Below the pieces are notes generated by a model. The model was not told the origin of the DNA. It saw nothing but the letters and a program-made list of their open reading frames with translations, and made no database searches. The position numbers and the translations under genes are program-made. From Catajapyx aquilonaris (lineage: Eukaryota): a stretch of DNA of 20,000 nucleotides. The stretch is from contig KZ538365.1 in NCBI GenBank assembly GCA_000934665.2, positions 57,679-77,678 of the forward strand. Reading direction: 5' to 3'. Positions 1 to 20,000 of the stretch are shown one piece after another (within the stretch, counting starts at the first letter, position 1; the number at the start of each line of letters is the position of its first letter).

Positions 1-1
1 C

Positions 2-2089
2 ATGAAAGACTTGCGTCTGCAAGCCAAAGCCGTTGAACAAGTAAACCAAGAGGGAGGGCAAAAGCTGCAAGCTACTCAAGAAAAATGGGAAGAATTTACG
101 GAAGGCCTACAAACCGTCAGTCAGCTGATCCAAGAAGTTCAGCTGCAGCTCAAGCAAGTTATCGAGTCAGAGCAACCGATGGAGAGCAAAGTGGAAGAAC
201 TGGACTTAATTGAAATTGCCAACAAGAGCCACACCACCAAGCTCATCTATTTAATCGCCACTGGGAATCATTTGCTGCGAGATCTTCCCAACTACGACAT
301 GCCTCCCATGATATTCGAATTGTATGACACTGTTCGGCACATTGAGAAAACCGTGACATGGGAGCGAGAACGGCTCTTGCAACTCATGTCACTGACCGAG
401 GAATATGAGCAGACTCTAGAAGAATTTGCGCAAATCATCGAGGTAGCAGACGCCCTGGTGGAGAGCCCCATCATTGCCTTGCATCTGAATCACCTTCAGG
501 AAGAACTGCAAAAGCACCGCAGGTTCTTTGCCAATCTCAGCCACTGCCAACAAGTTTTGGAATCTCTGGAGGCCAACCTGGATCCAGCCACTCGTGCCTC
601 CCATCACGAGATGCACTCGAGATTGCATCATCAAGCTTCAGTAATCCTGGACAAGGCCGCCCAAAGAGCACAGCAGATGGCCATGGCTGCCTCGAGATGG
701 ACGGTGCTGGAGAGAGGAATGCAAGAAGAGAGTGGTTGGCTTCAACTTACACAGCAAAGAGTGCCGGGCCTGGAGTCAGTATCTTGTGCCGATTACGAGC
801 AATGCTTTGCATTATTCCAGAGCCTGTATTCGGACGTGGTGGTCCACCAAGCGCGTCTGACTCAGCTCAGGAGCATTGCTGAAAATCTTCAAGGCATCCT
901 GACATGTTCGGGCCTAGAGACAAAGTATGACTACCTTGCCGAGACTATTCACAGGCTGCAAGAGGTGGTGACTGCAGGTCTGCAGAGACTAGTCGCCTTC
1001 AGAGAAGCTTGGAATAACTACGAACAACTGACCGACCGCCTGCAGGGCTGGCTGGAAAAATCAGAGAAGAAGCTTGATGCCATCCTGGCGCACAAACTTT
1101 CTGGTCGAAATTTGAAAGAATTTTGGGAGTTAAAAGCACAGTTAGAAGTGCAGCAAGCTGTCAGGAACGAGATTATCGTGTGCTTTGAACAGGCTCTAAG
1201 AGCGTTGCCCATCATTGATGAACCGGCTCAAAGACAGTTTTACAGTCAGCTGGACGACCGATGGACCTCCCTGTCCGCGAGAGTGATGGCAGTTGACGCT
1301 ACCTTGCAGCAGGACGACACAGCTGACGAGATTAACGTCGAGGAAACTCTCCACACCGTGGGTAAGGAGTTGGACGAGATTCAAGAGGTGGTCGAGAGCC
1401 TTACCGTCGTCATCGAGACGGAAGACGACTTGTACGAGTATCTGGAGAAGTTGCAGGTACTCAAAGCCCAAATAGTCAACAAGCTAAACCATTTGAACGT
1501 TCTCAAGAGTCGCAGATTGACAACAAAAGAAGCAGAGACCTTGGGTGGATTGCTCCACACCATCCACACCTTGGATTATCAAATCACCGAAGAACTGGAA
1601 GCAGCTCAGGTTATCCGGGATAAGTTTACCAGTTTTAACAAGATGGCTATCAAAGTCAAACGACTCCAGGACAACCTGAAAGCCAAGGTGGACCAGTGGA
1701 CTACGTTCGTTGAGCTGTCTCACGATATACTCCAGCAGACCATCAAGAACTGCGACGGCATCGACGAAGAAGTTGAAACACAAAGGCACGATCTCCGAAG
1801 ACTCTCGGGAGTGTTGGTTGGCTTTCCTTCAACGGAGCACTTGTCCATCAGCACTGCCAAATTGGAGAGCGAAGTAGCCGAATTAGAAGCCAACCTTCAG
1901 ACGCTGACCACCCGGGTCAAGGAGCTGCAGAAGAAAGTTCAGGAGCACCTCGGCTTGTGGCAGCAGTACGAACACACCCTAGAGTTGCTAAACCAGTGCG
2001 TCCACGAAACTCAGTACGTCATGGACATCCTGGACGTCAATGGAGTTGTCGACTACGATCGAGTTCAAGCGGCCACCGAGAAGCTAGAG
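2..2089 (+). CDS. Msp300: Nesprin/Msp300-like gene, exon A (5'-truncated large spectrin-repeat exon, 696 codons in window)
   Basis: Long helical E/Q/L-rich ORF with spectrin-repeat Trp spacing (AWNNYEQLTDRLQGWL, LDDRWTSL, LWQQYE). Phase-0 donor GAG|GTATGT at 2090. Open from the window start. Confidence 0.9.
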
Positions 2090-3795
2090 GTATGTATTGG
2101 ATTCATTTCTTGCGTTTTTGTGGGCGTGGCTAATTCATATCAGACCAAATTGGATTTTTATCGTCATATCTACCCCCATGCTAATTGAGGATAGTGTCGC
2201 AGGTTTTAAGTAAGATCCATCCGATTACTGGTTACCGACAAGGATGCCAAATTCTTGCGAACAATATTTCTTAGCTGCATGTTTTTCCTGACTGATCTTG
2301 TGTGCTGTTTTGTTATTGTAACTCGAAGGAATGTCTGACTCTCTGATTTGCTATAGGTCGCGACTCACGAGTTATTCCAATTCAGATCACGCCATCTAAT
2401 ATTGGTTGCACTGGTTTGGTTACAAGCCAAGGACCAGGGTGTAAAAATAGGATGACGACATAGCACACTGGGAATAATATATGCCTGTATTTCTTTCCAT
2501 CGGATGCAGAGGTGACGTATAAGCGCCGAGATGCGTGCTGAAATATCTGGTTCAAAATAGTGGTCCTAGCTGCTTCAGACTGACCCGATGGTGGGGTAAG
2601 AACTATCTGCATAGTGCATCTTTATGGATGTCAATGCGCTCTGTAAATAGGTTAGTGAATCAGGACGGGGAGATTATGCCTTGCGGTAAGATGTAAGAGG
2701 GCATCTTGTGATAACTCCGAACTTGGCCTCTGCCCCCACCCCTTTCTGTATCGGAAAATGCGGAAATAAGTGATACACTGAGATATACAAAGCTCCAGTG
2801 TTGGTAATATGTATACCGCCAGTGTCAGGAGCGCCTAGGACCACGTGACTAATCCGAACCGGAGATAAAATAAGGAAAAGTTCCGTTCTCGGGAATTTTG
2901 TCGCCTATTTTCTGGAAGAGAGCCAAGGTGATGACGAAGACATGCCATGACTTTTTTTTTTAAACGCTGGTGGCATTTAGGATTTACGACCGTGTTTATG
3001 TCATTCACGTGTATTACCAGTGCGTGATGTCATACCTTTCGCGCCCAGGGTGCGTGAATATTTGTGGCGGAAGATGTGAGTGGAATGGACGAATTCCTTG
3101 AGCTGCATAACTGCGTGCCGTGATATTTACACGAGTCGTTGGCCCTTCGTGCAGAAAACTATTGAATGAATGACCGTGACGTATTTGGGGTATAGCGAAA
3201 AAGTCACGGCTTTGGCTGCCGGGATGCCAAGGACGGTGAAGAGTTGTGTGGGTCGTTAAAGAGACGTGTTGATTACATGCTTGCTGCTGTGATTGAAAAG
3301 GTCATTCCCCAATTATAACTGATCCCGAGCTTTCGTGTGCCGGCCGACATGGAGAGTAGAGTCTGACGGGATGCTCCGAAGGAATTTTTGAGAGAAAGTT
3401 TTGTAGGGCAAAAGTCAGCGAAACACAGCAGATTGTTTGTGCATATTTCGGTTCCAAGTTAGTCACTAGACTGCTATTGTTAGTTCAGCAACGTTCCATA
3501 CAATCTTATCGATTCGTAGAAAAACCACTTGGAAGGCCAGTCCGTCTCATCCACTCCAGATAATGAATCTATCCCACTGATGTTTCTAGTGTCTACAGTA
3601 ATTAGTTTCGCAGTCCTCGACACTGCATTATCAGCTAGAGTAATTGCTTCCAAATGGGTCGGGCAGCCCCCCGCGTTGTACCGGCCTTATTGGATCCTGT
3701 TCTGGCGCGTGCCAGGGGCCAATTAACACCGCCAGCCCATTTGATCGGCCAAGAGACACGTGGAAGCTGCCTCTGATAACGATTGTTTCCAATAG

Positions 3796-4089
3796 GAACT
3801 TGGTGGCAAGTTGAAGGAGCGTGAACGACTAGTGGACGAGCTTCGCAACTCGGCGTCCACCTTGACTGCCCAGTGTGCTCCCGAGGTACGTGAGGAAGTG
3901 GAGGCTGCCGTTGGATCAGCTGCTCGGGCTTGGCATGCCACGTGCGATACTCTCAACTCCTTGCGGGACAAGTACCGGAAGGCTCTGGGACTTTGGGACA
4001 CCTTCAGAGACGACTGCCAGGGTGTTCGGGCTTGGACTGAGGAGAAGATTGAGGCCGTTGCTCACATGTCATGCCCTGGAGATATCAAG
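3796..4089 (+). CDS. Msp300: Nesprin/Msp300-like exon B (ELGGKLKERERL...PGDIK)
   Basis: Acceptor tttccaatAG ending 3795; donor AAG|GTAGGA at 4090; phase 0/0; spectrin pattern AWHATCDTL...LWDTFRDDCQGVRAW. Confidence 0.88.
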
Positions 4090-7010
4090 GTAGGATAAGT
4101 TTGGATTGCTCTTTCCGTGGCTTCTTAGGGTTGATTAGACAGTCTGACCTGCGATGCACTCGTGTGCCATTTGAAAATAATGTTGCTCAAGTGGTTGCAT
4201 CAGCATTCGGCAAAATTTCATGCAGCATACGGATGGTTCACCGGAGAAAAAAAAACTTGAAATTAGGCAAAATTCGTAAGAGATTGCGCACTTCCTGCTT
4301 TACTGAAATGTCAAGTTCATTTCCCTGGATTATGACTGCGCTGATAAGACAAGTTGCACAAAAGAAGACCGACTCATACCTTCACACCCATAGAGGAATC
4401 ACCCTAGACTGACTTTCGTCTTGCATGTTGTTCATCCAGGCCCTGTAGTGTACGCAGGGCACTTTTTATTACACTTTCAATTCTGCCGTAGCTATACAGT
4501 TACTAGAGAATGCGGAATTTACGATCTTTGTCTTTTGCCATTCGTTTTGTTACGGCAAAGCACCAACCAACGCGCGATAAGGCAGTGTTTGCAACATAGG
4601 TCGTAGATTTCAAGGTGAAGACCGTATCAGCTTCTTGCATCGTTAGGTTGGAAGGGGGAAAAAATTAAGCCCCCAAGAAATGTGTAAGAAATTTCCGGAC
4701 GTAAAAGAAGTACACAAGGGCGGAGTCTAGGCGGGAATTACATCAACACCATTAGTGTAGCGTTGCCCCCGGCGAAATCATATGAACGAGGCTGAATTGT
4801 TCTTATAAGCCGAACAAGTCCACTTACTAATAAGCTGAAAACTTCAAAAATGGAGTTAGTATCGAGTGATATATACTTGTTTGTAAGCATGATATAGATG
4901 ACTTGAGAAACTACAACTAATAGGTTATAAAGAGGAAAGGTCGCACGCAACTGTCGACTACGATCGGAATATTGGCATATCAGAGAACTGACCCCCCTTA
5001 CCCACAGGTCCTTCTGTGTATAAATTTAAATATTAACGGTGTAGGGGGAATATAGAAGGCGACCTTCGACAGAGGTTAGGTCATCGAGCAAGTCAAGAAG
5101 GAACTGCGACTCGAGACCGAGTTGTTCCGCACTAAATATAGAGGTGATGTCGGTAGCTGCATGTTTTGCCTCCTTCACCTGTTTGCATAATGTTGGTTGC
5201 AGCCGCAGGACAAGGAGGTGTCTGTGACTACCGGAGTACTTTGCAACGTTTTTTTTTTTTTTCACGATGACTTTCAAATCGGTAAACCGCATATTTAAAG
5301 AGCGGGGGTAACCTGCTGATTACCTGGGCGCAGGCGCAGGCAGGTACTGTACAGTACATTACCGGCAAGTTGCGTAACACGTGTATTCCCATCTGGGCTG
5401 CGGCAGGAAACGAGCTATAGAATTGTGCGGAGCATATCTGCAGTTGCCAGCTGTACTGCCTCGATAGAGGATCCCTTACTTGGATATGCGAACTGTGTCT
5501 GAATGGATGTAGTGCAAAGTGTTCGTTTCAATATGGGTGCTGTGTATCGGGACACTCAGGAAAAACGGCAGAAATCGGTGAGACTTTTTTTCAAAGGCAT
5601 GTTTTGTAACTGCTGCGTGAAGTGAATATTTAAGCGTGTGTACTGGTGTCGCAATCTCAAAGTGGCGTAAGTTGTGTGGTAGGCGTATAAGGGAAAAAAT
5701 AGTCGTGACGATAACGCTCAACGTTGATACGCGCGCAAATTGTATTTGCTATTAAATTAACCTTAGAGATAGCGTCACCCGTCCGAGTGAACAACATGAT
5801 GTCATGTTTGTTGACAAATAGTGATGTCCTACTCAATGCCGGTATTTAGCCAGTAAAAGTGACGGGTGCTGGGAGTGCATGACCGGAACTTGACATCACA
5901 CTGGTGACTTTTCGGGAACCTTGAGTAATAAGTTATGGCCAAGACGTGACGCGATACAGGTGAAAGGCATGCTTCCGAGACGGTGCTACGGAGGTGAATA
6001 TAATCGAAATGCCAAAAATAGTTCAAGGCGATTAGGTCGAGGAGAACTGCAAGAAATGAGGATATGTCTGTCCCATCCCACTTTCATTCATTCGTTCATT
6101 GATTCATTCAGCCGTGATCTGACAGAATATGATTTCTCACATGCGCGCTACGTGTCACTGTACCATTGCATGCTGGTACCTTGACGCAGCGGGAACCTGA
6201 TAGTATATGTGAATAGGAATAGGCAGGCATGTGTCGACGAATTTATGAGTCAACTCGCAAGCCATTGCATATAGTACTGCACCTGTGGTTCCTTTCGAAG
6301 CTGAGATTTCTAATGGCCATGTTCTGAATACAGGAACGTGACTTTGCTGTGTGACTCAGCAAAAAATTACGGCAATCATTTCAAGCCATGAGTATAGCTT
6401 ACTAATCTGTAAAATTACGCATCGGAACTGTAATGATGGCACAGCCTCATTGCACATAGCTCCTGTGTACAACGTAGTGAGCTAGGAAGACAAAAATTAT
6501 ACTCAGACTACGATTGCTATCTGGCCATGCGTTTCCGTTTAATATATTGCACTTTTCTAGACCTGAGTTTTGTCTAGTTTTCGTAAGCTGTGCTGCTAAC
6601 TGCTGTAGTTTTCTAGATCAGCGTGCTTGCAAATTAAAAAATAGCCCTATATACCCATGTCATAGTGAGAGCAGTATAGGCTACAAATAAGGAATTCTAC
6701 TGTCTACATAATTATCTAGGCGGTTGAAATGCGTGGTTTCTTATGGGGTTCCCCATACCAGTAGTAGAATAATAAAAAGATTATTGCTATACTTATTTCC
6801 ACTGCAGTAATTCGAGATTTTCGGAACGTAGCCAACGAGGCTTTCTTGTGTACCGTATGCCATTACATTTGAATAAGCTGATTAACGAGCTTCTGTTCAG
6901 CTGTGGTGACGCTTAAGCTATAGCCCTCCATTTATACGATCCCGTCGTCAGGTGTACTTGTAATCACAAATATGCCTTTATGAACGTGAACATAATGACG
7001 ACTAATTGTA

Positions 7011-7117
7011 ATCACGTGTGCACGTGATAGAGGCGTTAATTTTTTAGATCAATGCGGTTGTGACCCACCATTTACCTCTGGTCACGCGCGTCTTGTATTG
7101 TAAAGCAAGCCGGAAAT
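7011..7117 (+). promoter_or_regulatory. Putative internal promoter motifs: two CACGTG E-boxes (7013-7018, 7021-7026) and an ETS-like CCGGAAAT (7110-7117)
   Basis: Motifs read directly in CpG-rich DNA 50-150 bp upstream of the candidate alternative ATG. Function is inferred. Confidence 0.3.
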
Positions 7118-7163
7118 GTTTAATATTTAGATTAATCCCCAGTCCCCTTTTTTAAAGAAAAAA

Positions 7164-7235
7164 ATGCTTTTGGGAGCAGGAGAATTGAAATTGTCAGTAA
7201 ACGATGGAACTTATTCAGGAGTCACTCTTTGGCCG
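7164..7235 (+). CDS. Candidate alternative first coding exon (MLLGAGELKLSVNDGTYSGVTLWP); may extend 5' to an acceptor at 7142
   Basis: AAAATG start context, 24 open codons, consensus donor CCG|GTAAGT at 7236 in phase 0, compatible with exon C at 8415. The upstream ccccAG (7141-7142) would give an in-frame 93-nt exon. Confidence 0.55.
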
Positions 7236-8414
7236 GTAAGTGCATTATCAAGTTATTGTAAAACTTAATGTGTTTAAATACCGCAAAGTCGTATTATGAA
7301 CTACCAATACACTATAAAATGAGCCTGTCAATGTCTGTCGTGCCTGCTTTTCTGCGAAATACCCGAATGATATAGGTATAGGTATATTCGAGGACCCAAT
7401 CATTGCAACACTAGATTTATGCAGGGATTACTTCAGAGACCAAGTAATAGCCAGGCAAATTTTGCAGCCATATTTTGAGGACTCGGATAAAAATTATTTA
7501 ACACATACGATAAAAGGTTATAATTAGATCCACTTCAGAGTACAAAATCGATTCATATGACTTGTAACGTGCAATATTCATGTCTTCTCCAATGAAATGA
7601 TAATCAATACAAGTGACTTAATTGGTTAAACCACACTTGTAAAACGAGGAAAAAGTTTCTTTATATGGTTACTATATACAGATTTCATACACAAAAAAAT
7701 CATATTTTCCCCGCGTGACCTCGGAGTAAACCCGGAAAACACGGGGTTTTCCGGGCTATTACAACACTGCGCATTTTCTTATCGCTGCTTACCCTGCGCT
7801 GGGTGATGTTCCCAAATAATACAAAGACGACGAGGCGACGACGCGACGCCCGTCTGAACACCACTTTATGTGAATTCAAGCTGTGTCAGACACAGGACGA
7901 TACCTCATTTTAAAATTTATATACTGCATTATGCTGGGAATCATATGGCAGTAGGGCTAAAATTACGCCACATGATGACCCATAATGAAATGATAATTTT
8001 GTTCCCAGTCCTGGTGGAGGGCTGGAGCAGAAAGCAGGAAGTCGGTAAATTCGACCGATAAAAATTGTCGCAGGAAGTGGCCGGATGAACCCAGCCCAGA
8101 AAGGAAGTATTATTCACGTTGCTTTGAGTTTCGCGGCACCTACTTTTGGTCTCATGGTCCCATGCATTAGTGAGCTGAGTCAATTGTCTCTGAAAGATGC
8201 ATCATCCTTGTGACATCAGGCGGACTGGTTGTCACCTATTATTAGTTCCTCCAGTGCACCCTATTATTCTCTATGTTCTCTTGGTGTTAATCGTCTTGCT
8301 GTGGATAAGCAAGTGGTGGCCGATTCTTTGCGACATGAAGGTCGTGAACCTGGAATGATGGTTTTCTTGATGGGAGGTAATAGTATAATTATTGAACAAT
8401 GTCCTTTTTTTCAG

Positions 8415-8672
8415 GCTGTAGAATCGGGGCTTCTGGAGCAGGAAGGACGGGTTGAACGGCTGGAATCGGTGGCTATCCAGTTGGGCCAGGAGCTGGAGAT
8501 GGGTGAAGAAGCTGTGACGGTCCTGACAGCAGAAACTGATGCTCTCAGGAGACGTTTAGCTGTACTGAAGGACAGTTTGGGCTCGTTGTCAAAGTTGGCT
8601 GGGGAAGAGACAGCAGCTCGATGCAATGGGACTCTCAAGGACACAACGAGTTATCTCCAGAATGTCCAGGAG
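8415..8672 (+). CDS. Msp300: Nesprin/Msp300-like exon C (AVESGLLEQ...LQNVQE)
   Basis: Acceptor tttttttcAG ending 8414; donor GAG|GTGTGT at 8673; phase 0/0. Confidence 0.88.
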
Positions 8673-8987
8673 GTGTGTTAAGATGGCTTGATGATTCCAC
8701 ACTTATATAATAAATTATGCCAAAATATGTACAGAAAAGGTGGGGTGTGTGGGGGAAGGGGGGTGCAGTGCAGGAGGTGCTCACAACTTGTGAGCAATGA
8801 GTTTATTTAATTATTGGAGTGAAGGCACTGTTTGGTTTGATCCAGGCATGAATTCTGGCTCTGTTAGTGCAGAAGCATTGATTGTCATAGCCACTATACC
8901 TTCACGTTGCCCGTATAGGCCACATAAGGCATGACAGAGGATAGAAGTGGATAATAAATATGTAAAATGTAAATGTTTGTATTCCAG

Positions 8988-9173
8988 TCACTGCAAAGCA
9001 GAGAGAAGCCAGTGAATGGGGATGAAGAAACTGAGTTAGGTGCCCTGAGAGACCAACTGCTGGCACTAGGCAAAGCTGAGAACCAAATCCAGGCTGTCAA
9101 AGAACATGGGTCATCAACTTTGGGGCCTCCTTACGCTCCTGTAACCACGTCTGTTGTGTTGCAAGCACTACAG
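8988..9173 (+). CDS. Msp300: Nesprin/Msp300-like exon D (SLQSREKP...VLQALQ)
   Basis: Acceptor tattccAG ending 8987; donor CAG|GTTTGT at 9174; phase 0/0. Confidence 0.85.
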
Positions 9174-9731
9174 GTTTGTTTTTTAAAATGTTCAAAGCCA
9201 AATAATAATGTATCAGCATGATGGGAACAAATAATGAATAGGCCACAGCCAATTCCTTCCTTTCCTACCCTTGTCCCGTCCATGAGGAGGTGCTGTGTCG
9301 GTGAGGAGTTTCTGACCTGCACCTAGGGGGTTGTCTTGTAGCTTGGCCCCCTGGGGGACTGCACACAACCCCCAATTTGAGACATCGCACTTGCACCTGT
9401 ATCCCCCCCCCCCCCCTCACAANAAATCTCTATCCTGACCCCTGCACTGGAGAGAAAAATAATTAGAAAATTTTGTAAGAAGAAAATGGTGGTAATCCAC
9501 CCCCCCTGAAAGGGCTCTGCTACCTCAATGAGGTAAAGCTAAACTAAACTAAACATGATGGGAACAAATGTGTCTGCTTCTATAGTAAAATTTGATTTTG
9601 CAAACTATTTTAACTCTTTGACACTACAAATAAAGTGCATAAATGGGAGGCATATAACCTCAGCTTTATAATCTCCATAAAAACTATGTGTCTCGAGATG
9701 AATGAAATTGATATACAGTGGAGCATCGATT

Positions 9732-9993
9732 GACTGATGTTGGATGATTGGTGGCGTATGAATCGATGATGGATGACTTGAGGGATGGCTTATGACTGGA
9801 TGACTTGATGGTTGACTGGTGGCTTGTGACTGGATGACTTGATGGTTGACTGGTGGCTTATGACTGGATGACTTGATGATGGATGATTGGTGGCAGCGTC
9901 GTCGTTTTATTTTGTATTATGATTGTTGGTGTTGGGAGTGAGTGGGCTGTTGGTCCTTAACGGGCATGGCCGGTCCTAATAAAATCCTATTAA
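9732..9993 (+). mobile_element. 262-bp insertion inside the MITE left TIR, probably a 5'-truncated non-LTR retroelement 3' end
   Basis: Flanked by a 15-bp direct repeat, AGTGGAGCATCGATT (9717-9731) / AGTGGAGCAGCGATT (9994-10008). AATAAA at 9978-9983 near its 3' end. Confidence 0.55.
9786..9878 (+). repeat. 34-bp minisatellite, about 2.7 copies (TGGCTTRTGACTGGATGACTTGATGGTTGACTGG)
   Basis: Units start at 9786, 9820 and 9854, with degenerate copies on both flanks. Confidence 0.9.
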
Positions 9994-10236
9994 AGTGGAG
10001 CAGCGATTATCCGAACACCGATCAACCGAACCTTCGGTTAACCGAACGTTTTCGGGTCGGCAAAAAAAAACAAAAAACGAAAAAAACACACCATGTGATT
10101 CCCCTAGTGGTCGCTACAGCTGTGGCGCTGCAGATTAGCCGCCAAAAAAACGAGCCTCGGCTCTCAAGCAAAAGAGTTGGCCTTCCCCCCCCCCCCTAAA
10201 CTGTAGGACTACTTCATGTAAGGACAGTAAGGTATA

Positions 10237-10301
10237 TGTACTATATACGCCAAATTGTTTCATACCCCGGGGGTATGAAACAATTTGGCGTATATAGTAC
10301 A
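10237..10301. repeat. Perfect 65-bp palindrome (32-bp arms, 1-nt spacer)
   Basis: TGTACTATATACGCCAAATTGTTTCATACCCC-G-GGGGTATGAAACAATTTGGCGTATATAGTACA. Confidence 0.95.
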
Positions 10302-11101
10302 GTATTTTTAAGACGTGCCTGTGACAGAAAATATACAGGTTTGTGATTAATATCACTGTTTCTTAGTTTCATATTACTCCTGTGACACCGGTACAATTTT
10401 TTTCCGTAAATGATTGGTTATCCGAACAATCAGTTATCCGAACACCCCCTTGGCAGACTCTGTTTGGATAATCGATGCTCCACTGTAATTGCAAAGTAAA
10501 ACTAGCACATGTTTCAGCACAACTTACATATTGTTCACACATTGTAGATGGCCTTGCTAAAGCCAAACTCAATATTGTACTTCTACAATATCAGAGTTCA
10601 CTTAATTCCCATTGTAAACTCATTTTGCACAGAATTATGTGAAGTGCTTTTCACTGTATAAGGAGTTAATTCACGTGGGGTCTGGGTGATCCAGATATCC
10701 CACAGATGTTTTAGGGAGGCCTATCCCCACCAACTGTCCATGGAAAGCGTATTTTACTTTGGAGCTAATATTTTGTGCAACAAAATTGCTTTGCTTTATA
10801 GACTGAGTCAGAAGACAACCCAACCTATCCCACATGAGACATGACACACTTGGATGACAGCTATCCATCCTGGTGGTTTAATTTATGACCCTGGCACCTT
10901 ATGGAGGCCATGTAACACCTGGTTTAACCTAACTTCTTCATGGCGATCTCTTTAACTTGAATAAGATCTTGCCAATCAATCTAGGAAAGCCCACTACTGA
11001 TGATACTCCTCCATATACGAGCTCGTAGCTTTAATTTCATCACTAGTACTAACAATTCATTCAAGCCCTGCATTGTGTAAAAAATTATTTTCCTGTTTCA
11101 G

Positions 11102-11929
11102 TTGTGGCAGCAGGTTTTCCAGGAGACTTTTAGCCAGTATCAGCGTCTGTCCCGCCTTCTAGTATGTCGCCATGACACCAATTCCCTTCTGGGTATGTGG
11201 GAGTCCTACTTGAACCATGTCAAGCAGTTTCTCTCTGCTGCTCTTCCTGGGTCATATGATGCCCTGAGTGAGGAGCAACGCCTTTGCGAGATCCACAGGA
11301 ACCTGGTCAGCTGCCAGCAGAATGTGATTCAGACTAGGCAGGATGAGCTGCAGTCTTCTGAGCTGCCTGAGGTTTCTGTTGGCGAGGCTGCAAGCTTGTC
11401 AGCTTTACAGGAGCTTCATTCAGACACTTTGAGCCAACTTGGTTGCCGCCACTCACAGATAGGTGAGAGGCTGGAGAAATGGGATCGGTATAAGCGGGAC
11501 CAAGACAAGCTCTTGGCATGGCTGAGGGAACTGGAGAGGGAGAAGCAGAAGCTGGAACTTCCATACTTGAGAATAAGAAGAGCCCCCAAGGTCCTTCACC
11601 GGATACAGGTTTTGCATGACAAGATACCAGTTGGAGAGTCATTAGTGTCTGGATTGCTGCACCAGCAGGCCACACTCTTACTTTACTGCAATGAAAGTGT
11701 GGCGTCTTCTATGCGAATGGAGGCAGGTGCACTGAGGCAGAGAGTGGCAAACCTGAGAGCTGGCCTGGAAACTTGGCGGGACTTTATGATGCGAGTGCAA
11801 GACCTGTATAAATCATATGAAGAGCGAAGAGGGAGAATACAGACAACTTTGCACACAGTGCAAGCTTGCTTGGCTGGCGAGGTTCCAACTAAACTTGAAC
11901 ACTGTCAGAGGAGATTGGATGATCTGAAG
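11102..11929 (+). CDS. Msp300: Nesprin/Msp300-like exon E (LWQQVFQETF...RLDDLK)
   Basis: Acceptor tgtttcAG ending 11101; donor AAG|GTAAGA at 11930; spectrin repeats (KWDRYKRDQDKLLAWL). Confidence 0.92.
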
Positions 11930-12342
11930 GTAAGAAAACTCCTAACCAAGCAGTACAAAATGAAAACCACGGAATATTCTTGATAAACTGTAATAAGCAT
12001 TCATGTAAACAAATTATTGCTTTTAATGCTCGGTGCTCCACTCCTATACTTTTTAAAAAAATCAAAAGACTTGACTGTATGTTCTGTAACATTTCAAGTG
12101 GCTGAGAAAAGGCACTGTGAATAATTGCCAGGTTATTTGCTTAGGTCTTTTTCAAGCATTCACTTCCATTTTGTTGCATACTTCTTTGCCTTCAACTATT
12201 TATATTAACATGTACAAAAAGTAAGGGCCATTTTGGTGCATGTATATCATTATATTTATTATACCCTATGATCAGTGTTGTCTTCCTTACTTTAGCATCT
12301 TTGTAAAACTGCCTTAGTTAATAAATTGATTCTCATTTGTAG

Positions 12343-12996
12343 AAGCACCGCAGTTCTTTACTGGAACTAACAAAAGACCTAGACAATCTGGGTACAACTC
12401 AAGAACAGTTGAAGCAACGACTAAGCCCCTCAGATCTGAAGGTTATCAACCAGCATGTGTGGCTACTATGGCAACAACATGCAGAACTCCAGCATCAGCT
12501 TTGCAGTCACACCTACCAGTTGGAGGAAAGGATGGGCTTGCTCAGGATGTTTGACTCCAGGTGTTCACGATTTATAACCTGGGCTGTAGAGATGGAAGGG
12601 AGGCTTGAGTCTGGTGGACAACGACACGGAGGGATGGAGGAGATGATACGCCAGCTTGACTCAGAACTCAAAGAAGAGATGGAGCTGCGACAAGGAGATG
12701 TCACTTGGCTGATGGAATCTGGGCGAGAGCTGCAGGAGATGGCCTCAGAAGAGGAGATGGTAGAGTCCATTGGGCAGAAGATGAACAAGGTCAAGGAGAA
12801 ATGGGAGGCACTGCAGGCTGTTAGGGGGAGAAGAGTGAGCAGGCTACAAGAAGTACTTCAAGCATTGGCAGAGCTGGAAGCCAGAATGGCTGAGCTCCGG
12901 GCTCTCCTGCTTAGCCTGGAGGCACAACTGAATGTTCCATTACAGTTCCAGGAATGCACGCGGGCTGACATTGATGCAAAGCTTAAGGCACATGAG
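12343..12996 (+). CDS. Msp300: Nesprin/Msp300-like exon F (KHRSSLLEL...KLKAHE)
   Basis: Acceptor catttgtAG ending 12342; donor GAG|GTTAGT at 12997; phase 0/0. Confidence 0.92.
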
Positions 12997-13136
12997 GTTA
13001 GTTATTCCAAAATGAAAGTACAAATAATAATAATGCTTGTCTTGTAATTAGGTTTTCAGCAGTGAAGAATTTTATGCAGAGTTGCTTTAACACTGTATAT
13101 TTGATTTATGGATGGTTCTTTTTTTTTGTACTTCAG

Positions 13137-13282
13137 GACATGCAGAAAATGATTGAGAAGCAGAGCAGTGCAATGGCTGATGTCCTCAACCTTGGAGAAG
13201 TACTTTTGAGTGACTGTGAATCATGCAATGCATCCATTGACACAGAGGCCGTACAGCTTGCAATGGATTTGCTGGAAAAGAG
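13137..13282 (+). CDS. Msp300: Nesprin/Msp300-like exon G (DMQKMIEKQ...LLEK/R)
   Basis: Acceptor tacttcAG ending 13136; phase-2 donor AG|GTCAGT at 13283; VLNLGEVLLSDCESC resembles the conserved nesprin VLNLCEVLLHDCDAC motif. Confidence 0.9.
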
Positions 13283-13348
13283 GTCAGTTGCGTCGCCTAA
13301 ATGTTTTCAATATGCAAAGAACAATTACGGTATTGTTTTTCTTGATAG

Positions 13349-13547
13349 GTGGAAGAACATTTGCACACTGTCAGCTGATCGGAAAAAGTGCATCCTTAGC
13401 ACTTGGAAGAGCTGGAAGAAAATTTTGTCTGAATGTGACAAGTTGGAAGTCTTTCTTGCTGAGCAAGAAAAGGCTGCAGCAGATATCAATACAGATGCCA
13501 GTGTAGTGAAACTAGAGGCATTTGAGGAGCAGGTTGCTGCTGCTAAG
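13349..13547 (+). CDS. Msp300: Nesprin/Msp300-like exon H (R/WKNICTLS...AAAK)
   Basis: Acceptor ttcttgatAG ending 13348 (phase 2); donor AAG|GTCAGT at 13548. Splicing restores LEKRWKNIC, similar to nesprin LDRRWRNIC. Confidence 0.9.
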
Positions 13548-13638
13548 GTCAGTGTGGACAACAATAATAATACATTGTGTTCCATGTACAGCATTTGGAT
13601 CCTTTTAGTGATTGAAACTTTCTCCCAAAGTTGTTATA

Positions 13639-14012
13639 TAGGGTAACAGGAAACTCGCACCCAATCGCCAGGTAGACTGATAGTACTCGCAAAACTAATA
13701 CAGGGATGTGCAATTAGTTTTTGGCTCCGTTGCGTACTTAATGCATATGACACCTTTAAAGTGTAGAGGGCTGGATGGTAGAATATGAGGCAAAAACGAC
13801 GAAGTGCACGGGTGTCGCACCAGGATTCTTCCTCTGATGGGATTTGATCACCTATTGCACATGGACGATGCATTAGGGGACCAAGGTTGGATTATTTGGA
13901 GGCCTCCAGCTGACCTGCTTCTCTGAAGAAGAACTAATTGCACATCCCTATATTAGTTTTACAAGTACTATCAGTCTATCTGGCGATTGTCCCTGAGTTT
14001 CCCTTCACCCTG
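13639..14012. mobile_element. Tc1/mariner-type MITE, about 374 bp, with ~80-bp imperfect TIRs
   Basis: TA|TAGGGT...CAATCGCCAGGTAGACTGATAGTACTCGCAAAACTAATACAGGGATGTGCAATTAGTT (to 13719) is inverted at 13932-14012, ending CACCCTG|TA. Confidence 0.85.
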
Positions 14013-14078
14013 TACGTATTTGTATATTATGTTTTGTCCCCCAATGGAGATGCCCAATTATTCCCAGATGCTAGTATA

Positions 14079-14514
14079 CAGGGTGTATCAAAACTCTACC
14101 ATAAGCCATGTACCAATGGCATAAGGGGCACCAGAGCATCATTGTATGTAGAGGGGTCATCATCTCTAGGCCGCCTCATTACGGAGATAACTGCCTTCAA
14201 ACACGTAGTACAAAGTATCCTGGGAGGTATGGAAACCTTCAGCCCCGACATCGCATCACTCGTGAAAATAGCAGCTTTTCCATTTATCTACTAGCATGTC
14301 GCATGTGTACTGCATGTCGCATGTGATCTGGGACCATTTGTGACAATCTGTGACAATCTGTGACAATCACTCTTAGGCCCAATTGCTAAAATGCAAATGA
14401 TCAATTATCTCAGTAATGAGGCTGCCCAGACAATGACTCCTCTACATTAATTGATCCCCTGGTGCCCATTAAGCCATTGGCATATGGCTTATGGTGGAGT
14501 TTTGATACACCCTG
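14079..14514. mobile_element. Tc1/mariner-type MITE, 436 bp, with ~113-bp imperfect TIRs
   Basis: TA|CAGGGTGTATCAAAACTC... and ...GAGTTTTGATACACCCTG|TA. Internal short repeats: GCATGTCGCATGTG x2 (14294-14325) and TGTGACAATC x3 (14339-14368). Confidence 0.9.
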
Positions 14515-14722
14515 TATAATTGCGCACCTTGTATGGGGCACAAAAAGCTACACAAAAATAGCAACTTCGGGCAAAATTTGCAGTAAGTAAAAGGACCTGA
14601 ATACTTGGAAAATACTGTATAATAACTTCATTTGTACACCTGGAATTTATCAAATCAAGTGCAGTGCACATCTACTGGACCCAGAAGGCCTGTAATTCTG
14701 ACCTATTGGTATCTACTTTCAG

Positions 14723-15043
14723 GAGTGCCTCAACAACCTTCAGTCACACCTTTCCATCCTGGAGGATACAAATCGACTGTACTGCCGGTTGGCCCATGAG
14801 GGTTTGCTGGATTTAGGCCACCATTTGAGCGACCGGGTGCAGGGGATGGACTCCAGGTGGAGGTCTTTGGAAGCCCTTCTGACTGCTCACTTGCAGAGGG
14901 GCCAGCATCAGTTAGACAAACATGGTGCCTTCCAAGCTGCCTGGACAAATCTCCGAGTCTGGCTAACTCAGGTTGACCTGCGTATGACTGAGCTGCAGCA
15001 CCTGGACAAGAGGGAGAGACATGTACAGCTCAAGAGTCTGCAG
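14723..15043 (+). CDS. Msp300: Nesprin/Msp300-like exon I (ECLNNLQSHL...QLKSLQ)
   Basis: Acceptor actttcAG ending 14722; donor CAG|GTATGT at 15044. NRLYCRLAHEGLLD and VWLTQVDLRMT match the nesprin motifs NKQYRRLARENRTD and VWLTEMDLQLT. Confidence 0.93.
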
Positions 15044-15138
15044 GTATGTACCTGGTAACTTGGCACATATGGTGACAATATTGTAAATTATGATTAGCTA
15101 TGATGTAAAACTACCACAGGTTAACATTAGATGAAACA

Positions 15139-15484
15139 CGGGAGGTGTAGATGTCTGAGATGGTAAAGTCTTGGCTTGCTGAGTGAAAGGCCCCAGGTTC
15201 GATCCCGCCTGGGGAGTTCCTTTCACCTGCACCTTAAAGGTGTCTGGCGACCTAACCTCCTGGGGAACGGCACATGACCCCTTTACAGACCTTGCACTTG
15301 CACCCCATGTTCCCTTCTCAAAAATCCCTATCCTTACCCATGTCCCTGTTGCCTTGCACCAGTGAGCAAAGAAAATAGTACACAGTTACTTGAAAACTGA
15401 TAGTGGTGTGCCACCCCCCTAAAAAGGCCCCACCTTATGACGGGGTAACTTTAAAAAAAAACACACGCACGCACGCGCGCACAC
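15139..15484 (+). mobile_element. tRNA-derived SINE with A/CA-rich tail and 15-bp TSD
   Basis: Pol III A-box-like TGTCTGAGATGG (15152-15163); B-box GGTTCGATCCC (15196-15206); tail of A9 plus (CA/CG)n; TSD ACATTAGATGAAACA (15124-15138) / ACATTAGACAAAACA (15485-15499). Confidence 0.85.
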
Positions 15485-15755
15485 ACATTAGACAAAACAG
15501 ATTTTTTTAAATGGAACTAATGCTTTGCTGAGCTTGCCAGGAGAAGAAAATAAGTGCATCCATCTCCATATCCCATCCTGTGTCACTTCTAAATGTCATC
15601 ATTTTAGGGGTGTGTAATGTTTCAAGGTGTGGGGGATTTTCAGGGGAATAATATGAATACTAATAAATTAGTTTATTGGAGGGAGATGGTGAAAGCTGGC
15701 AAAAAAAAGTTATGAGGATAATCAATTGCTTACAACAACAAATAAAATGTTCCAG

Positions 15756-15947
15756 CAAATTCAGAGGGATGTGGTGGATCATGCCCAGGCCCAGAGCGAC
15801 ATGGAGGAGCTTGGTCTGTACCTCATGCAATGCAGTGAGCCAGGAGATGCAACCAAGGTGCAGGAGCAGCTGGACGAGTATCAAGCCCTCTCTCAGGATG
15901 TTGCCCATCGGATGAGTCTTTTAGTTCAAGAGCCTATGGACCAAAGG
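15756..15947 (+). CDS. Msp300: Nesprin/Msp300-like exon J (QIQRDVVDH...PMDQR)
   Basis: Acceptor gttccAG ending 15755; donor AGG|GTAAGC at 15948; LMQCSEPGDATKVQEQLDE resembles nesprin LIEKSEPLDAAIIEEELDE. Confidence 0.9.
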
Positions 15948-16080
15948 GTAAGCATTTAGGAGATTAATTGATTTACATAAAATCTGCAGTATATAGATAA
16001 GGGCAAACTATCTGACTAAAAAGTTTATGTAGACTTGCACTATACTTTAAGAGTAAAAGTGGAACATTTTTCTCCTGCAG

Positions 16081-16526
16081 GAAAAGACAAGTGAATCTCG
16101 AAAGCATTCAGCTGTAGAAGTTGACCAAGGTGTTCAGGTGGAGACCTTGAGGTTTGAACGTGACAGTGAGACACAGGTTGAGACCCTGGGCCACCCACCT
16201 GAATCTGGGGTGTTTAGCCTGACACGTGGCGATATCTATGCCCAAGAGCTTGGAGCAGGTTTACGGGATGCAAGAGAGAAGGCAGATGCCTTAGACTATG
16301 CCTTGGGTTCTGAAGAGGAATCCAGTTCAGGGGCCTCCCTGGTGAAGCAGCTGGGGGAGTGCAAATCAGCCATGGACATGGTGAAGCACTTAAGCCAACT
16401 GCTGCAGGAGGAGTGTGGGGCAAGTGCAGAGGAGGCCAGGGACTCAGAGATTCAGGAGCTGGGAGACCTGCTCAAGGACCTTGAAGCAAGGGTCATTGTC
16501 AAGGGGCAAAGGATTAGGGAAGTTGG
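16081..16526 (+). CDS. Msp300: Nesprin/Msp300-like exon K (disordered linker plus helical segment; EKTSESRK...IREV/G)
   Basis: Acceptor tctcctgcAG ending 16080; phase-2 donor GG|GTAAGC at 16527. Confidence 0.9.
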
Positions 16527-16676
16527 GTAAGCATGGCAATTTTCAGTCAGTCTTAGGTTCTGTTCAGGTGATCTGAAATTTTTGAGCCTCAACACACCTA
16601 ATTTTGAATTTGTCTTAACTGACCTTGTTTGCAAAGGAGATCATCTGAAAAATAACATCTATTGTATCTGGTTCAG

Positions 16677-16812
16677 GTGTAACTGGAGACAGTTTGAAAG
16701 TGATATGTGGCGCCTGGAAAAGTGGCTTGAGTATGCAGAGGGCATCCTGGAAGGCCAGAATGCACTACCAAGCAACATTGAGCGATTGGAGGATATAATT
16801 CAAGACAATAGG
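16677..16812 (+). CDS. Msp300: Exon L, Klarsicht-like spectrin repeat (CNWRQFESDMWRLEKWL...IQDNR)
   Basis: Acceptor ggttcAG ending 16676 (phase 2); donor AGG|GTAATT at 16813. Confidence 0.9.
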
Positions 16813-16927
16813 GTAATTATAGCAACTTGCAGCCTAATTATTTTGCTGGGATGGAAGCAGCCTGTCATCTCATTTCTTTTGTTCTGTATTCTGTAGGGTT
16901 TGTTTCACCTTTCAGGCCATTTAAAAA

Positions 16928-16965
16928 TGAAGCTAAAGTCTCTTTGTGAAGCTAAAGTCTCTTTG
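16928..16965 (+). repeat. Exact 19-bp tandem duplication TGAAGCTAAAGTCTCTTTG x2 in the branch-point region
   Basis: Copies at 16928-16946 and 16947-16965, ending just upstream of the acceptor AG (16980-16981). Confidence 0.95.
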
Positions 16966-16981
16966 TTCTGTATCTTGGCAG

Positions 16982-17317
16982 GAGTTTTCATTGAACCTGG
17001 ACAGCCACAAGAATATCCTAGTGTCACTAAACATAGTGGGCAGCAATCTGGGTGACTTGACACAAGACCCTGATCATGCATCTGAGCTGAGATCTCGCTT
17101 GGAGGAGGCAAATCACAGGTGGGATTCAGTTTGCAGAGATGCTGCCTCCTGGGAGCAGAGGTTGCAGTCTGCTCTGATGGACAACAGGGATTTCCACCTC
17201 ACTATTGAAGAATTGGTTTCCTGGATGGAAAGAACAGAGGACCAGATAAAACAAGCAGAGCCTGTTGACCTTAGGGCTGAAAGAGGAGTCATCGAGGCCA
17301 AATACAACCGATTTGTT
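16982..17317 (+). CDS. Msp300: Exon M, Klarsicht-like spectrin repeats (EFSLNLDSHK...KYNRFV)
   Basis: Acceptor cttggcAG ending 16981; donor GTT|GTGAGT at 17318; LQSALMDNRDFHLTIEELVSWMERTE...AEPVDL motif. Confidence 0.93.
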
Positions 17318-17380
17318 GTGAGTTTTTAGTGCACATGTCCTTTATCCATCAAGTGTGAGATTTATTGCCCTGCTTTATAT

Positions 17381-17979
17381 CCTCCTGAGACCCGAGAAGA
17401 AATGAGTAACACAATGTCAGTTCCTATTGCATTTTCTGAACATTTTCCCAATAAGAAACGAGAAAAAATTATATTTTTCAGCTTTCATCCGTTCTGCTTT
17501 TAAAAGCAGAACGGATGAAATCTGAAAATTTAAATGCCACTTAATGGATCACTAACATAGTGCTCTATCCTCCAAAGAATGTTTTTTAAATTCATTTGTG
17601 GAATTCATGGTAGCAATTCGTCTCATAAGGCAATTAAAGATAAACTGCAATTATTTTTGAATGCCACCACTCCAGGCATGGGGCTTGCTCCTTCCCTTCT
17701 TACCCCCTAGCATGGTATACCTTGCTATTCTAGATTTTAAAATTGAACTGTAGTACCAAGCACACTTCCTTGTGGGTGTTCAGGCATAAGATGAGCGCCT
17801 AGCTTCAGCAGCGGCATCCGCCATTTTCATGAGTGATTTCATTTTCGCGGCCAAAGTCAGATATTTGACACTAGGTGGCTACACCTATTCAGGCCAGATT
17901 GTAATCATGGGATGCCAACAGATTACAGTTCTGTTGGCATCACTAGTTGGCGCCAATTTTTTTTGCTGGTCTCGGGAGG
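17381..17979. mobile_element. Non-autonomous piggyBac-like element with ATAT target-site duplication
   Basis: ATAT|CCTCCTGAGACC ... GGTCTCGGGAGG|ATAT (11/12 TIR match); internal 27-bp-arm palindrome at 17475-17528 and a 12-bp stem at 17911-17941. Confidence 0.7.
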
Positions 17980-18639
17980 ATATAGGCATTATATCAAATA
18001 GTCTGTCAGTCAAGCAAACCCAGATCATTCAAGGAAAACAGTTTTCAATCAGCCTTTTCTCACCAGTTCAAAAGTAGTGGAAGCTGAATTCAGTTTATGA
18101 CGTGGCCTTTCACATTCCTGCTGTTGTAGCATGCTATTTTCTCCCACTCTTGATTGGCTGTATGCTGTAGTGAATGGTTAAAAAAGTTTGTAGTGGGAAT
18201 AAGCTAAAGAGGTGCAGTACATCAAGTTCGGAGAGAGATTGTGGGTTGTCTGAATAACCTGTCATATATGCACTAGACATGAAACTGATATACATATTCA
18301 AGAAAATGTGATTTCAGCTAAGTCAATCTTTCCACCTAAAAAAGATAACATGTTTGCCTAAATAATTAGAAGTACAAGTGTGTAAAGGATATGAAGGACT
18401 TAGCAATGCTGCTTATTACAGTAATGATAACTATTCTGATAGATATTAATAAAACTGTGTTCCAAAGGTAATGATCCTCCTTTTCTCTGCTACTTTTGCC
18501 CATATTGACATTCTGACACTTGCATGCCATCTGCCATGAGCAGGATTCCTGCTTGTAACACACAACTTAATTTTTTATTATATTCAATGTACGAAGCTTT
18601 GCCTAGGTGATCCACAATTATGGTGTGTGTAATTTCCAG

Positions 18640-18915
18640 GAACTCCAGACTGATCTATGCAGGCATGAACCTCGTGTAATGCGCCTGAGAGAGGCTTCAG
18701 ATCAGCTGCTATCCCATGTGGCATCCTCTGAATGCGTGTCATCCAGGAGGAAACTGGCTCGCCTCAGCCAGCAGCTTAAGGCCACCCTAAGGCTGTGCAA
18801 CATTTATATCACACGGCTTGCCCAGGCCATGGGGCGGGACTTTGCACAGCTCAGGGCTGATGGGAGAATCGGGGCTGCTGCTGCGACTCCCACATTACTA
18901 TCTCTCTCACAACAA
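18640..18915 (+). CDS. Msp300: Exon N, last spectrin repeat before the KASH linker (ELQTDLCRHEPRV...SLSQQ)
   Basis: Acceptor atttccAG ending 18639; donor CAA|GTGAGT at 18916; EPRVMRLREASDQLL resembles Klarsicht/nesprin EPRVVSLQDAADQLL. Confidence 0.92.
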
Positions 18916-18986
18916 GTGAGTTGTGTTTGCACAATCTCCAGTTGCTGGACAGTTTATTGATGCACAGTCTCACTGTTGTAGCTTAA

Positions 18987-19132
18987 CGCCCCTTCACACA
19001 CATGCTACACAGGCTGCACTGATGGAACTCAGCATATTTATTGGCTTCATGTCACCATAGAGACAAAGAGAAAGCCAAGTTCCCATCAGTGCAGTGAGCG
19101 TAATGCTGGCGTAATGTATGTGTGGATGGGCC
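18987..19132. mobile_element. Possible decayed PIF/Harbinger-type MITE
   Basis: TAA|CGCCCCTTCACACACAT ... ATGTGTGGATGGGCC|TGA, with an internal inverted CTGCACTGATGG / CCATCAGTGCAG. The TSD is imperfect. Confidence 0.4.
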
Positions 19133-19507
19133 TGAAAAGTTTTAAATTCGGTATTGCTGATACGATCATTACAGGGTCAGCTGGGAACAGGGTACAAAAA
19201 AAATTAAAAGCAACAAGCTGCATTGCATCATATTTGGCCCAAAGCAGTAGTTACGTGCAATTTTTCAAATATTAGAAGATAGAAATTCATTCTGTAGAAA
19301 TAGCTAAAAGTTAAATAGTTAAAATACACAGCATTCTGTGCACTGTATCAATTTGAACCTGTACAGTCAGCAGCAACAATTGCCGGCTTTTTTTTAGGGC
19401 ACAATTTTATTTTGCAGATCACACCATTTCTCCACATACCCACTCCTTGAGTTGAGCTGTAAATATGCTGGCTCACGCTGACATGCTTTTTTTCTCCCCC
19501 TATTTAG

Positions 19508-19581
19508 CTGCTGGACCAGTCATCTAGCTTTGACTTGGCAAGGTCTGACTCTTCTGCAGAAAGAGATCAGCAGCAGGAAAA
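19508..19581 (+). CDS. Msp300: Small exon O missed by the ORF track (LLDQSSSFDLARSDSSAERDQQQE), pre-KASH linker
   Basis: Branch-like GCTGAC, long polypyrimidine tract and tttAG ending 19507; open in phase 0; phase-2 donor AA|GTAAAT at 19582. The join gives SLSQQLLDQ, reminiscent of the Klarsicht pre-KASH linker. Confidence 0.7.
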
Positions 19582-20000
19582 GTAAATACTCCTCTTTTTT
19601 GTTTTTTGCTTTTTGCTAACTGTAAAGAGGCCATTTTGATTTATTTGCCTTGCTTTCGAACATGAGTGCAATATGAGGAATTGGCCACCCCTGTGTAATC
19701 AGGTGTACACTTTGTTGTGTAATTACATATGATAATGAATAGACACCAATGCTTTCTTTATGTAATCATAATCCAATGTGCACCTCAATGTGGCCAACTC
19801 CTTGGTTCAATCAAACTCTCACATTACAGGCCTGAAAAGGTCCATCCTAAAAGGATTACAGTATTGGCAACACATAATTGGAACATGTAAGAGTTTGATG
19901 GTTATATTTATAGCATAATAGTAAGCTATGCGCTATGCCTCAATAGTGTCACATGGCATCCATCATGTTGCACGTTATTGACAAGAAGGAGGACACAAGT

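Follow-up and report, generated by a model that had tools for sequence, protein, structure and literature searches.

CpG depletion is an accepted signature of germ-line 5-methylcytosine (5mC; PMC5915941), and in invertebrates this mark lies as a mosaic over gene bodies. In Ciona, gene-body methylation goes along with maternal and stable expression (PMC3827831); in the termite Zootermopsis it increases from 5′ to 3′ and extends over introns (PMC5111047), and in most arthropods it is biased towards exons (PMC7343188). Flies have no CpG methylation (PMC5915941). Short isoforms made from inside a giant gene have also been described. Drosophila Msp300 has internal start exons that give the CH-less isoforms E, G and M, and is expressed in all tissues tested, including the ovary (PMC8616381, PMC11230431). 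In vertebrates, nesprin-1-alpha and nesprin-2-epsilon are N-terminally truncated spectrin-repeat/KASH proteins of 100–120 kDa made from internal promoters (PMC3981789). Here we analyzed 20,000 nt of Catajapyx aquilonaris (GenBank assembly GCA_000934665.2, contig KZ538365.1, positions 57,679 to 77,678 of the forward strand; hereafter the window), which hold the 3′ part of the arthropod Msp300/nesprin-1 gene and, inside it, a border between CpG-rich and CpG-depleted DNA. Gene-body CpG erosion and internal-promoter short nesprins are both known; their place in Msp300 has not been described before in the literature searched (few subscription papers, no supplements), where the papers listed dealt neither with a short Msp300 isoform outside Diptera nor with a methylation border in Msp300, and where one source mentions Msp300 only as isoform-regulated (PMC13502018).

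The gene model has 15 exons (A to O, Table 1) with GT-AG introns and, after correction of several exon ends, an open frame of 2144 amino acids (aa). Residues 1–2127 align in one piece, at 34–38% identity, with the Msp300/nesprin-1 proteins P0004, P0005, P0051 and P0219; the aligned insect portion is their C-terminal part, and the frame is colinear with the insect orthologues. Regarding the spectrin-repeat rod, five of the nine exons tested gave Pfam Spectrin or Spectrin_SYNE1 matches at E<0.01, exon M being the only one to pass the Pfam gathering score for a spectrin repeat; weak Pfam matches to CoV_S2 and bZIP lay below the cut-off and were rejected as coiled-coil noise. The best matches of exon A, at around 40% identity, include named insect Msp300/nesprin-1 proteins, and many open reading frames of 2400–3300 aa share its terminal residue. 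Searching cluster representatives with exon E gave 127 matches, the best at 46% identity, so the protein clusters searched hold no close relative; the model is nearer to insect proteins (best 43–60% per region) than to two more distant proteins. The CH-domain part of the gene would lie 5′ of the window and the KASH-coding part 3′ of it. Besides, the annotation of the blowfly Nesprin-1 (P0045) has no match to model residues 1088–1873, a piece of the 3′ rod some 780 residues long that beetles, ants and this animal retain, possibly a loss in flies or an annotation gap.

For transcripts we used run X5, taken as RNA because of its GT-AG joints; it is one run, in the form of contigs, of unspecified tissue, and it contains exons B to O. 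Its joints confirm at least 11 of the 14 introns. The main RNA contig (contig 10, 6284 nt) begins at 3795, one base 5′ of exon B, passes from exon B to exon C unbroken, shows the pieces listed for it at the expected spliced positions through exon M and has 1937 nt remaining beyond exon O, the RNA going on past 19581. Another RNA contig, of depth 6.8, covers positions 1–2024 of exon A; the depth over exons B–O is 51.8, a difference that we do not use as evidence, as 3′ bias alone could lower exon A.

The CpG observed/expected ratio (o/e) is 0.85 at positions 1–8700 and 0.31 at 8701–20000. The maximum-likelihood change point falls at 8650 (support range 8140–8780), close to the border at about 8.7 kb proposed by an earlier model-made reading of the letters alone (the sequence-only reading), and its log-likelihood gain of 86 compares with a maximum of 19 in 200 block permutations and about 8 for the GpC control. 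A second change point near 1160 was not significant, being reached by 12 of 200 permutations. CpG is the only one of the 16 dinucleotides to fall by more than 14%, every other ratio being at least 0.86: across 8700, GpC o/e goes from 1.08 to 1.14, GC content stays nearly constant (0.457 and 0.435), and TpG and CpA o/e rise from 1.20 to 1.35 and from 1.12 to 1.32, respectively. The proposed change in CpG is confirmed. The introns share the shift, as had been proposed (o/e 0.95 in introns 1–2 and 0.37 in introns 3–14), and all six manual CpG counts of the sequence-only reading were exact (16 at 1261–1440, and 17, 9, 2, 5 and 3 in exons B, C, D, K and M). Its description of the transition as sharp holds for the introns, where there is a step after exon C; the exons show a ramp instead of a single step.

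This exonic ramp, with no loss in exon A, partial loss in B and C and full loss from D onward, was seen with codons controlled for. Synonymous sites capable of a CpG hold one at 76 of 218 positions in exon A (35%), 9 of 47 in exon B (19%), 5 of 30 in exon C (17%) and 17 of 393 in exons D–O (4%), with p=0.006 for A against B+C and p=9e-5 for B+C against D–O. For third-position C before G the counts are 56/93 (exon A), 6/21 (B), 0/10 (C) and 13/161 (D–O), a loss that sets in only at exon B, and third-position C before A, C or T is kept throughout (145/227 in A, 234/374 in D–O). Exon A therefore shows no CpG-specific loss (56/93 before G against 145/227 before other bases, p=0.61), in agreement with the claim that the 5′ giant part is spared, and exon B is already partly depleted (6/21 against 20/32, p=0.024), with Arg CGN codons accounting for 8 of its 17 CpGs. 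In D–O, NCA codons stand in place of NCG codons, 88 to 4. Intronic repeats of the window were compared with other copies over 40 of 97 differences; among the changes in which most copies agree, 7 of 11 transitions to T or A in the window were CpG losses (binomial p=0.004 at an assumed 0.22), and 1 of 8 in the reverse direction (Fisher p=0.06). The best reading of these sequence patterns, and the one already given for the 3′ part, would be CpG-to-TpG decay from germ-line gene-body methylation: the loss is CpG-specific and codon-controlled, and comes with a gain of TpG and CpA.

Shorter relatives of the model were looked for in a search that gave 146 proteins, of which 120 were listed; 86 were mapped on the model, and ten species were picked by hand. 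Among the matches listed, many named shorter relatives start at positions corresponding to exons B to E. The ten picked insect species, from Hymenoptera, Coleoptera, Hemiptera, Orthoptera and Phasmatodea, have annotated short proteins of 1153–1515 aa starting at exons B to E, which speaks for the separate short 3′ unit put forward by the sequence-only reading; a KASH-type tail ends them in eight of the ten, and Pfam KASH was found in three of three tested. The precomputed Pfam matches of P0176 and P0178, two distant relatives of the short unit, include a C2 domain (PF00168).

Some of these proteins have leaders of their own. Wasp isoforms X1–X3 join a leader of 1–2 aa to the exon-B equivalent, and in two ants, a wasp and a beetle a leader MCTP[ED]E[IL]K stands directly before the exon-C equivalent and differs from the exon-B tail of the same species. 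In the window, the last eight codons of exon B, MSCPGDIK, resemble the insect short-isoform leader MCTPEEIK and begin at the only in-frame ATG of that exon (ATG 4066). Against the leader, MSCPGDIK is the best of 2136 model 8-mers (BLOSUM62 score 19), and 1 of 100 among those ending in K, whereas 14 full-length exon-B tails score between -13 and 5. The predicted start codon would give an in-frame, CH-less KASH product, with short annotated orthologues in relatives. A search for exon-B homologues gave none among four candidates. The short-isoform leaders (window 4066–4089; P0121, P0217, P0218, P0155, P0096, P0222 and P0122) keep a Cys at or near the N-terminus, which we take to be a possible lipid-modification or N-degron site.

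We also gathered 15 orthologous loci (L001–L015) from metagenome contigs, ten of which form a polyneopteran-like group. All ten are depleted over exons D onward, with a whole-locus CpG o/e of 0.25–0.45, and only one of them, L010, reaches 3 kb upstream of exon D. In L010, CpG o/e steps from 1.07 down to 0.30 at position 1400 (0 of 100 permutations), some 1.6 kb ahead of exon D and downstream of exon C, which itself lies outside this contig. Steps in L008, L011 and L014 are partly inflated by microsatellites and were not counted; L004–L007, L009 and L013 extend hardly or not at all upstream of exon D, the last of them being too short. Hence, conservation of the border rests on L010, the other loci being undepleted, not significant or too short. 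Between L010 and L012, CpG retention was 13/20 upstream and 20/49 downstream (p=0.11), and no DNA likeness was found between the CpG-rich part of L010 and the window introns. Two stretches of L010 deserve a description. Positions 1–445 match Sleeping Beauty transposase weakly (E 0.023) and are a remnant of a Tc1/mariner-like transposase; 18 nt at the end of this remnant recur in the inverted arms at window 14070–14523. Positions 950–1200 are intronic, rich in CpG, and contain GGAAGT, TGACGT and, at 1170, a GTGAGT donor; in this polyneopteran-like group they may include a first exon that precedes exon D. The stretch is around 94% conserved in L012, which is no more than other aligned sequence.

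We give moderate credence to the following explanation. Transcription starting upstream of ATG 4066, in intron 1 or beyond the window, would make a CH-less spectrin-repeat/KASH isoform of about 1400–1500 aa besides the giants. If transcription of this short unit is broad or takes place in the germ line, its body would carry gene-body 5mC, and methylated CpGs would deaminate to TpG/CpA, so that CpG decays. The promoter-proximal introns 1–2 would stay unmethylated, exons B and C would gain partial methylation, and methylation would be full after exon C, its onset probably following that of histone H3 lysine 36 trimethylation (H3K36me3) downstream of a long 5′ intron. The giant exon A, outside the short unit, would show no decay.

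A start upstream of intron 2 is indicated because contig 10 begins at exon B, exon B is partly depleted and the tail of B matches the insect leader, and we consider it more likely that the unit starts upstream of ATG 4066. From the way contigs are constructed, the start of contig 10 may mark a graph branch at which a second upstream exon is joined to B; a branch at 3795 would mean that this exon ends in a base other than A followed by G. Among intron 1 donors, exon ends 2595 and 2685 have this ending, and a second upstream exon beyond the 5′ edge of the window would fit too. Window 2513–2595 has TGACGT followed by a TATA-like hexamer, with a GTAAGA donor some 75 bp later, and is a candidate short first exon of the unit that begins at exon B. 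The X5 contigs have no cover on 2025–3794 or 4088–8412, and this is absence of cover only, because short first exons can be pruned from contigs.

One could argue that the methylated unit starts late in intron 2 (around 7.0–8.2 kb), with a first exon spliced to exon C or extending it, and an internal start in this intron was what the sequence-only reading had proposed. The step would then come about 0.5–1.5 kb downstream, as in Ciona (PMC3827831), insect leaders join the exon-C equivalent directly, and this part of the intron has a CpG peak (o/e 1.38 at 7601–7900), a cluster of three AGGAAGT motifs (8036–8108) and an in-frame ATG at 7164 with a GTAAGT donor at 7235. However, the main RNA contig passes uninterrupted from B to C, partial depletion is seen as early as exon B, and it is exon B that contains the counterpart of the insect leader. 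Moreover, AGGAAGT is not enriched in the window (9 against 8.8 expected), and its cluster (p~2e-4) was chosen post hoc. The proposal of an intron-2 start is therefore not supported, and we regard it as rather unlikely, with the proviso that such a start can coexist with an upstream one, for example as a minor or germ-line-only start.

An explanation with no internal promoter is, in our opinion, less probable again. Here, germ-line long isoforms that skip exon A, or the giant itself, would be transcribed, and the gene would be methylated except for a CpG-rich block, from A through intron 2, protected as a regulatory or repressive domain. The window may end short of the second upstream exon that is joined to B, Drosophila Msp300 shows much alternative splicing and four start exons (PMC8616381), and there is the weak, non-significant CpG drop at 1–1160. 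This explanation is opposed by exon A, which is without synonymous CpG loss, and by the fact that several insect orders have short proteins with leaders of their own.

Finally, repeats change at the same border: high-copy repeats are absent from all 13 bins up to 8671 and present in 8 of the 17 that follow (Fisher p=0.004), the 6 kb of introns 1–2 having none. Intronic transposons might thus have seeded methylation that spread to their flanks, the step being where insertions begin. We find this very improbable: 3′ of the step, unique sequence is more depleted than repeat-like sequence (o/e 0.24 against 0.53), which argues against repeat-seeded spreading; exons B and C, 0.6–5 kb from the first repeat, are already depleted; and the transposase remnant on the 5′ side of L010 keeps a CpG o/e of 1.0. 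The distribution of repeats fits either the tolerance of insertions reported for methylated gene bodies (PMC13345969) or constraint on regulatory introns 1–2. On the poor side there is one CpG-rich patch (9990–10490, o/e 1.05), within an insertion resembling a miniature inverted-repeat transposable element (MITE) at 9714–10487, which is probably young; this insertion has a 34-nt tandem repeat (9778–9883) and a perfect 32-nt hairpin (10237–10301). An assembly misjoin, or a plain compositional or codon effect, can practically be discarded despite an N at 9423 and repeats at 9.3–10.5 kb near the step, because a DNA contig (which may be from the source sample) spans 1–9293 without difference, RNA joints C–D and D–E cross the step, the open frame is colinear with the insect orthologues, and GpC, GC and third-position C before A, C or T are unchanged.

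Returning to a start upstream of ATG 4066, several observations weigh against it. Neither a first exon nor an A–B joint was seen in the RNA contigs of the one run, the proposed start codon lies 4.6 kb or more ahead of the point where full depletion begins, compared with 1 kb in Ciona, and the leader match is only 8 residues long. The insect leader exon is absent from the 1.3–1.4 kb upstream of exon C in L001–L003 and was not found upstream of exon C in L015. Short annotated genes can be artefacts of the splitting of giant genes, and the annotation of one ant orthologue keeps it whole, at 7148 aa. Among the orthologous loci, the CpG-rich side of L010 is only 1.4 kb long, ends at the contig edge and includes the 445-bp transposase remnant; the steps of L008, L011, L012 and L014 were not significant (6, 34, 14 and 24 of 100 permutations), nor was that of L015 (11 of 100); and three ant loci are undepleted (o/e 1.38–1.56) although ants have the short annotated protein.

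Table 1. Features of the window (positions 1 to 20,000; strand as given, a point where none is assigned).
Feature	Positions	Strand	Remarks
Exon A	1–2089	+	3′ end of giant spectrin-repeat exon, open from window edge
Intron 1	2090–3795	+	CpG o/e 0.93, no high-copy repeats; candidate site of the first exon of the short unit
Exon B	3796–4089	+	294 bp; first exon of main RNA contig; partly CpG-depleted at synonymous sites
ATG plus 8 codons MSCPGDIK, proposed short-isoform translation start	4066–4089	+	leader match
Intron 2	4090–8414	+	CpG o/e 0.95, no high-copy repeats
Competing candidate for the first exon, from in-frame ATG to GTAAGT donor	7164–7235	+	pattern match, no RNA cover
Three AGGAAGT motifs in 73 bp, rival promoter or enhancer	8036–8108	+	motif scan; motif presumably ETS-like
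Exon C	8415–8672	+	258 bp; CpG change point near 3′ end
CpG-depleted gene body, exons D–O	8673–20000	+	open frame, GT-AG ends, RNA joints
Exon D	8988–9173	+	186 bp
MITE-like insertion, 18-nt terminal inverted repeats	9714–10487	.	9990–10490 part still CpG-rich
Exon E	11102–11929	+	
Exon F	12343–12996	+	
Exon G	13137–13282	+	
Exon H	13349–13547	+	
Two MITE-like insertions, 86- and 96-nt inverted arms, intron 8	13637–14523	.	
Exon I	14723–15043	+	
Very high-copy repeat, intron 9	15130–15330	.	DNA depth >60000 in bin; we take it to be SINE-like (short interspersed nuclear element)
Exon J	15756–15947	+	
Exon K	16081–16526	+	446 bp
Exon L	16677–16812	+	
Exon M	16982–17317	+	336 bp
High-copy repeat, intron 13	17380–17990	.	
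Exon N	18640–18915	+	
Exon O	19508–19581	+	

No nested gene is evident at positions 2090–8414, which contain 40 stop-to-stop frames of at least 60 aa, of which the non-exon ones are shorter than 100 aa and were not searched further. Rfam gave no match in the window or in L010.

Compared with the systems described, the locus is like invertebrate mosaic gene-body methylation (PMC3827831, PMC5111047, PMC5915941, PMC7343188) in that a conserved gene shows CpG-specific depletion of exons and introns with GpC unaffected, and in that depletion rises from 5′ to 3′ behind a 5′ zone that would be unmethylated. It differs in that the border lies inside one annotated gene, between a giant exon and a 3′ unit, in that full depletion comes several kb after the proposed start, and in that methylation is read here from the DNA letters. 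Regarding the isoform, fly Msp300 belongs to the same gene family; its transcripts other than isoform F measure 21–43 kb and its KASH isoforms are giant, so no KASH isoform of 1400–1500 aa is described for the fly in the available parts of these papers (PMC8616381, PMC11230431). Among vertebrate short nesprins, epsilon-1 is found in ovary and embryonic cells, and nesprin-1-alpha-2 is muscle-specific, unlike the unit described here, which appears to be germ-line or broadly expressed (PMC3981789). The arthropod product would also be larger, at about 160 kDa as estimated from its length. In the silkworm, nesprin-1 is among the maternal mRNAs, the isoform not being stated in the available text (PMC6887711).

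The short KASH isoform of Msp300 is present in the automated annotations of many insects and absent from the fly isoform list; it is a candidate broadly expressed or germ-line component of the LINC complex (linker of nucleoskeleton and cytoskeleton) outside flies. The locus is also a natural experiment within a gene: in the same gene, and within the same amino-acid class, CpG loss and transposon load switch at one border, which is of use when asking what determines the 5′ limit of gene-body methylation in invertebrates. Quite tentatively, we suggest that non-dipteran hexapods might share an old CH-less Msp300 isoform of about 160 kDa, with a Met/Cys leader, as the general and germ-line LINC KASH protein, and that the CpG border may be kept near exons C–D. 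If true, the role of the short isoform might include meiotic chromosome movement, the border would have been kept across lineages as far apart as this animal and the polyneopteran insects, and hidden germ-line isoforms of giant genes could be mapped by their intragenic CpG steps, with DNA as the only source.

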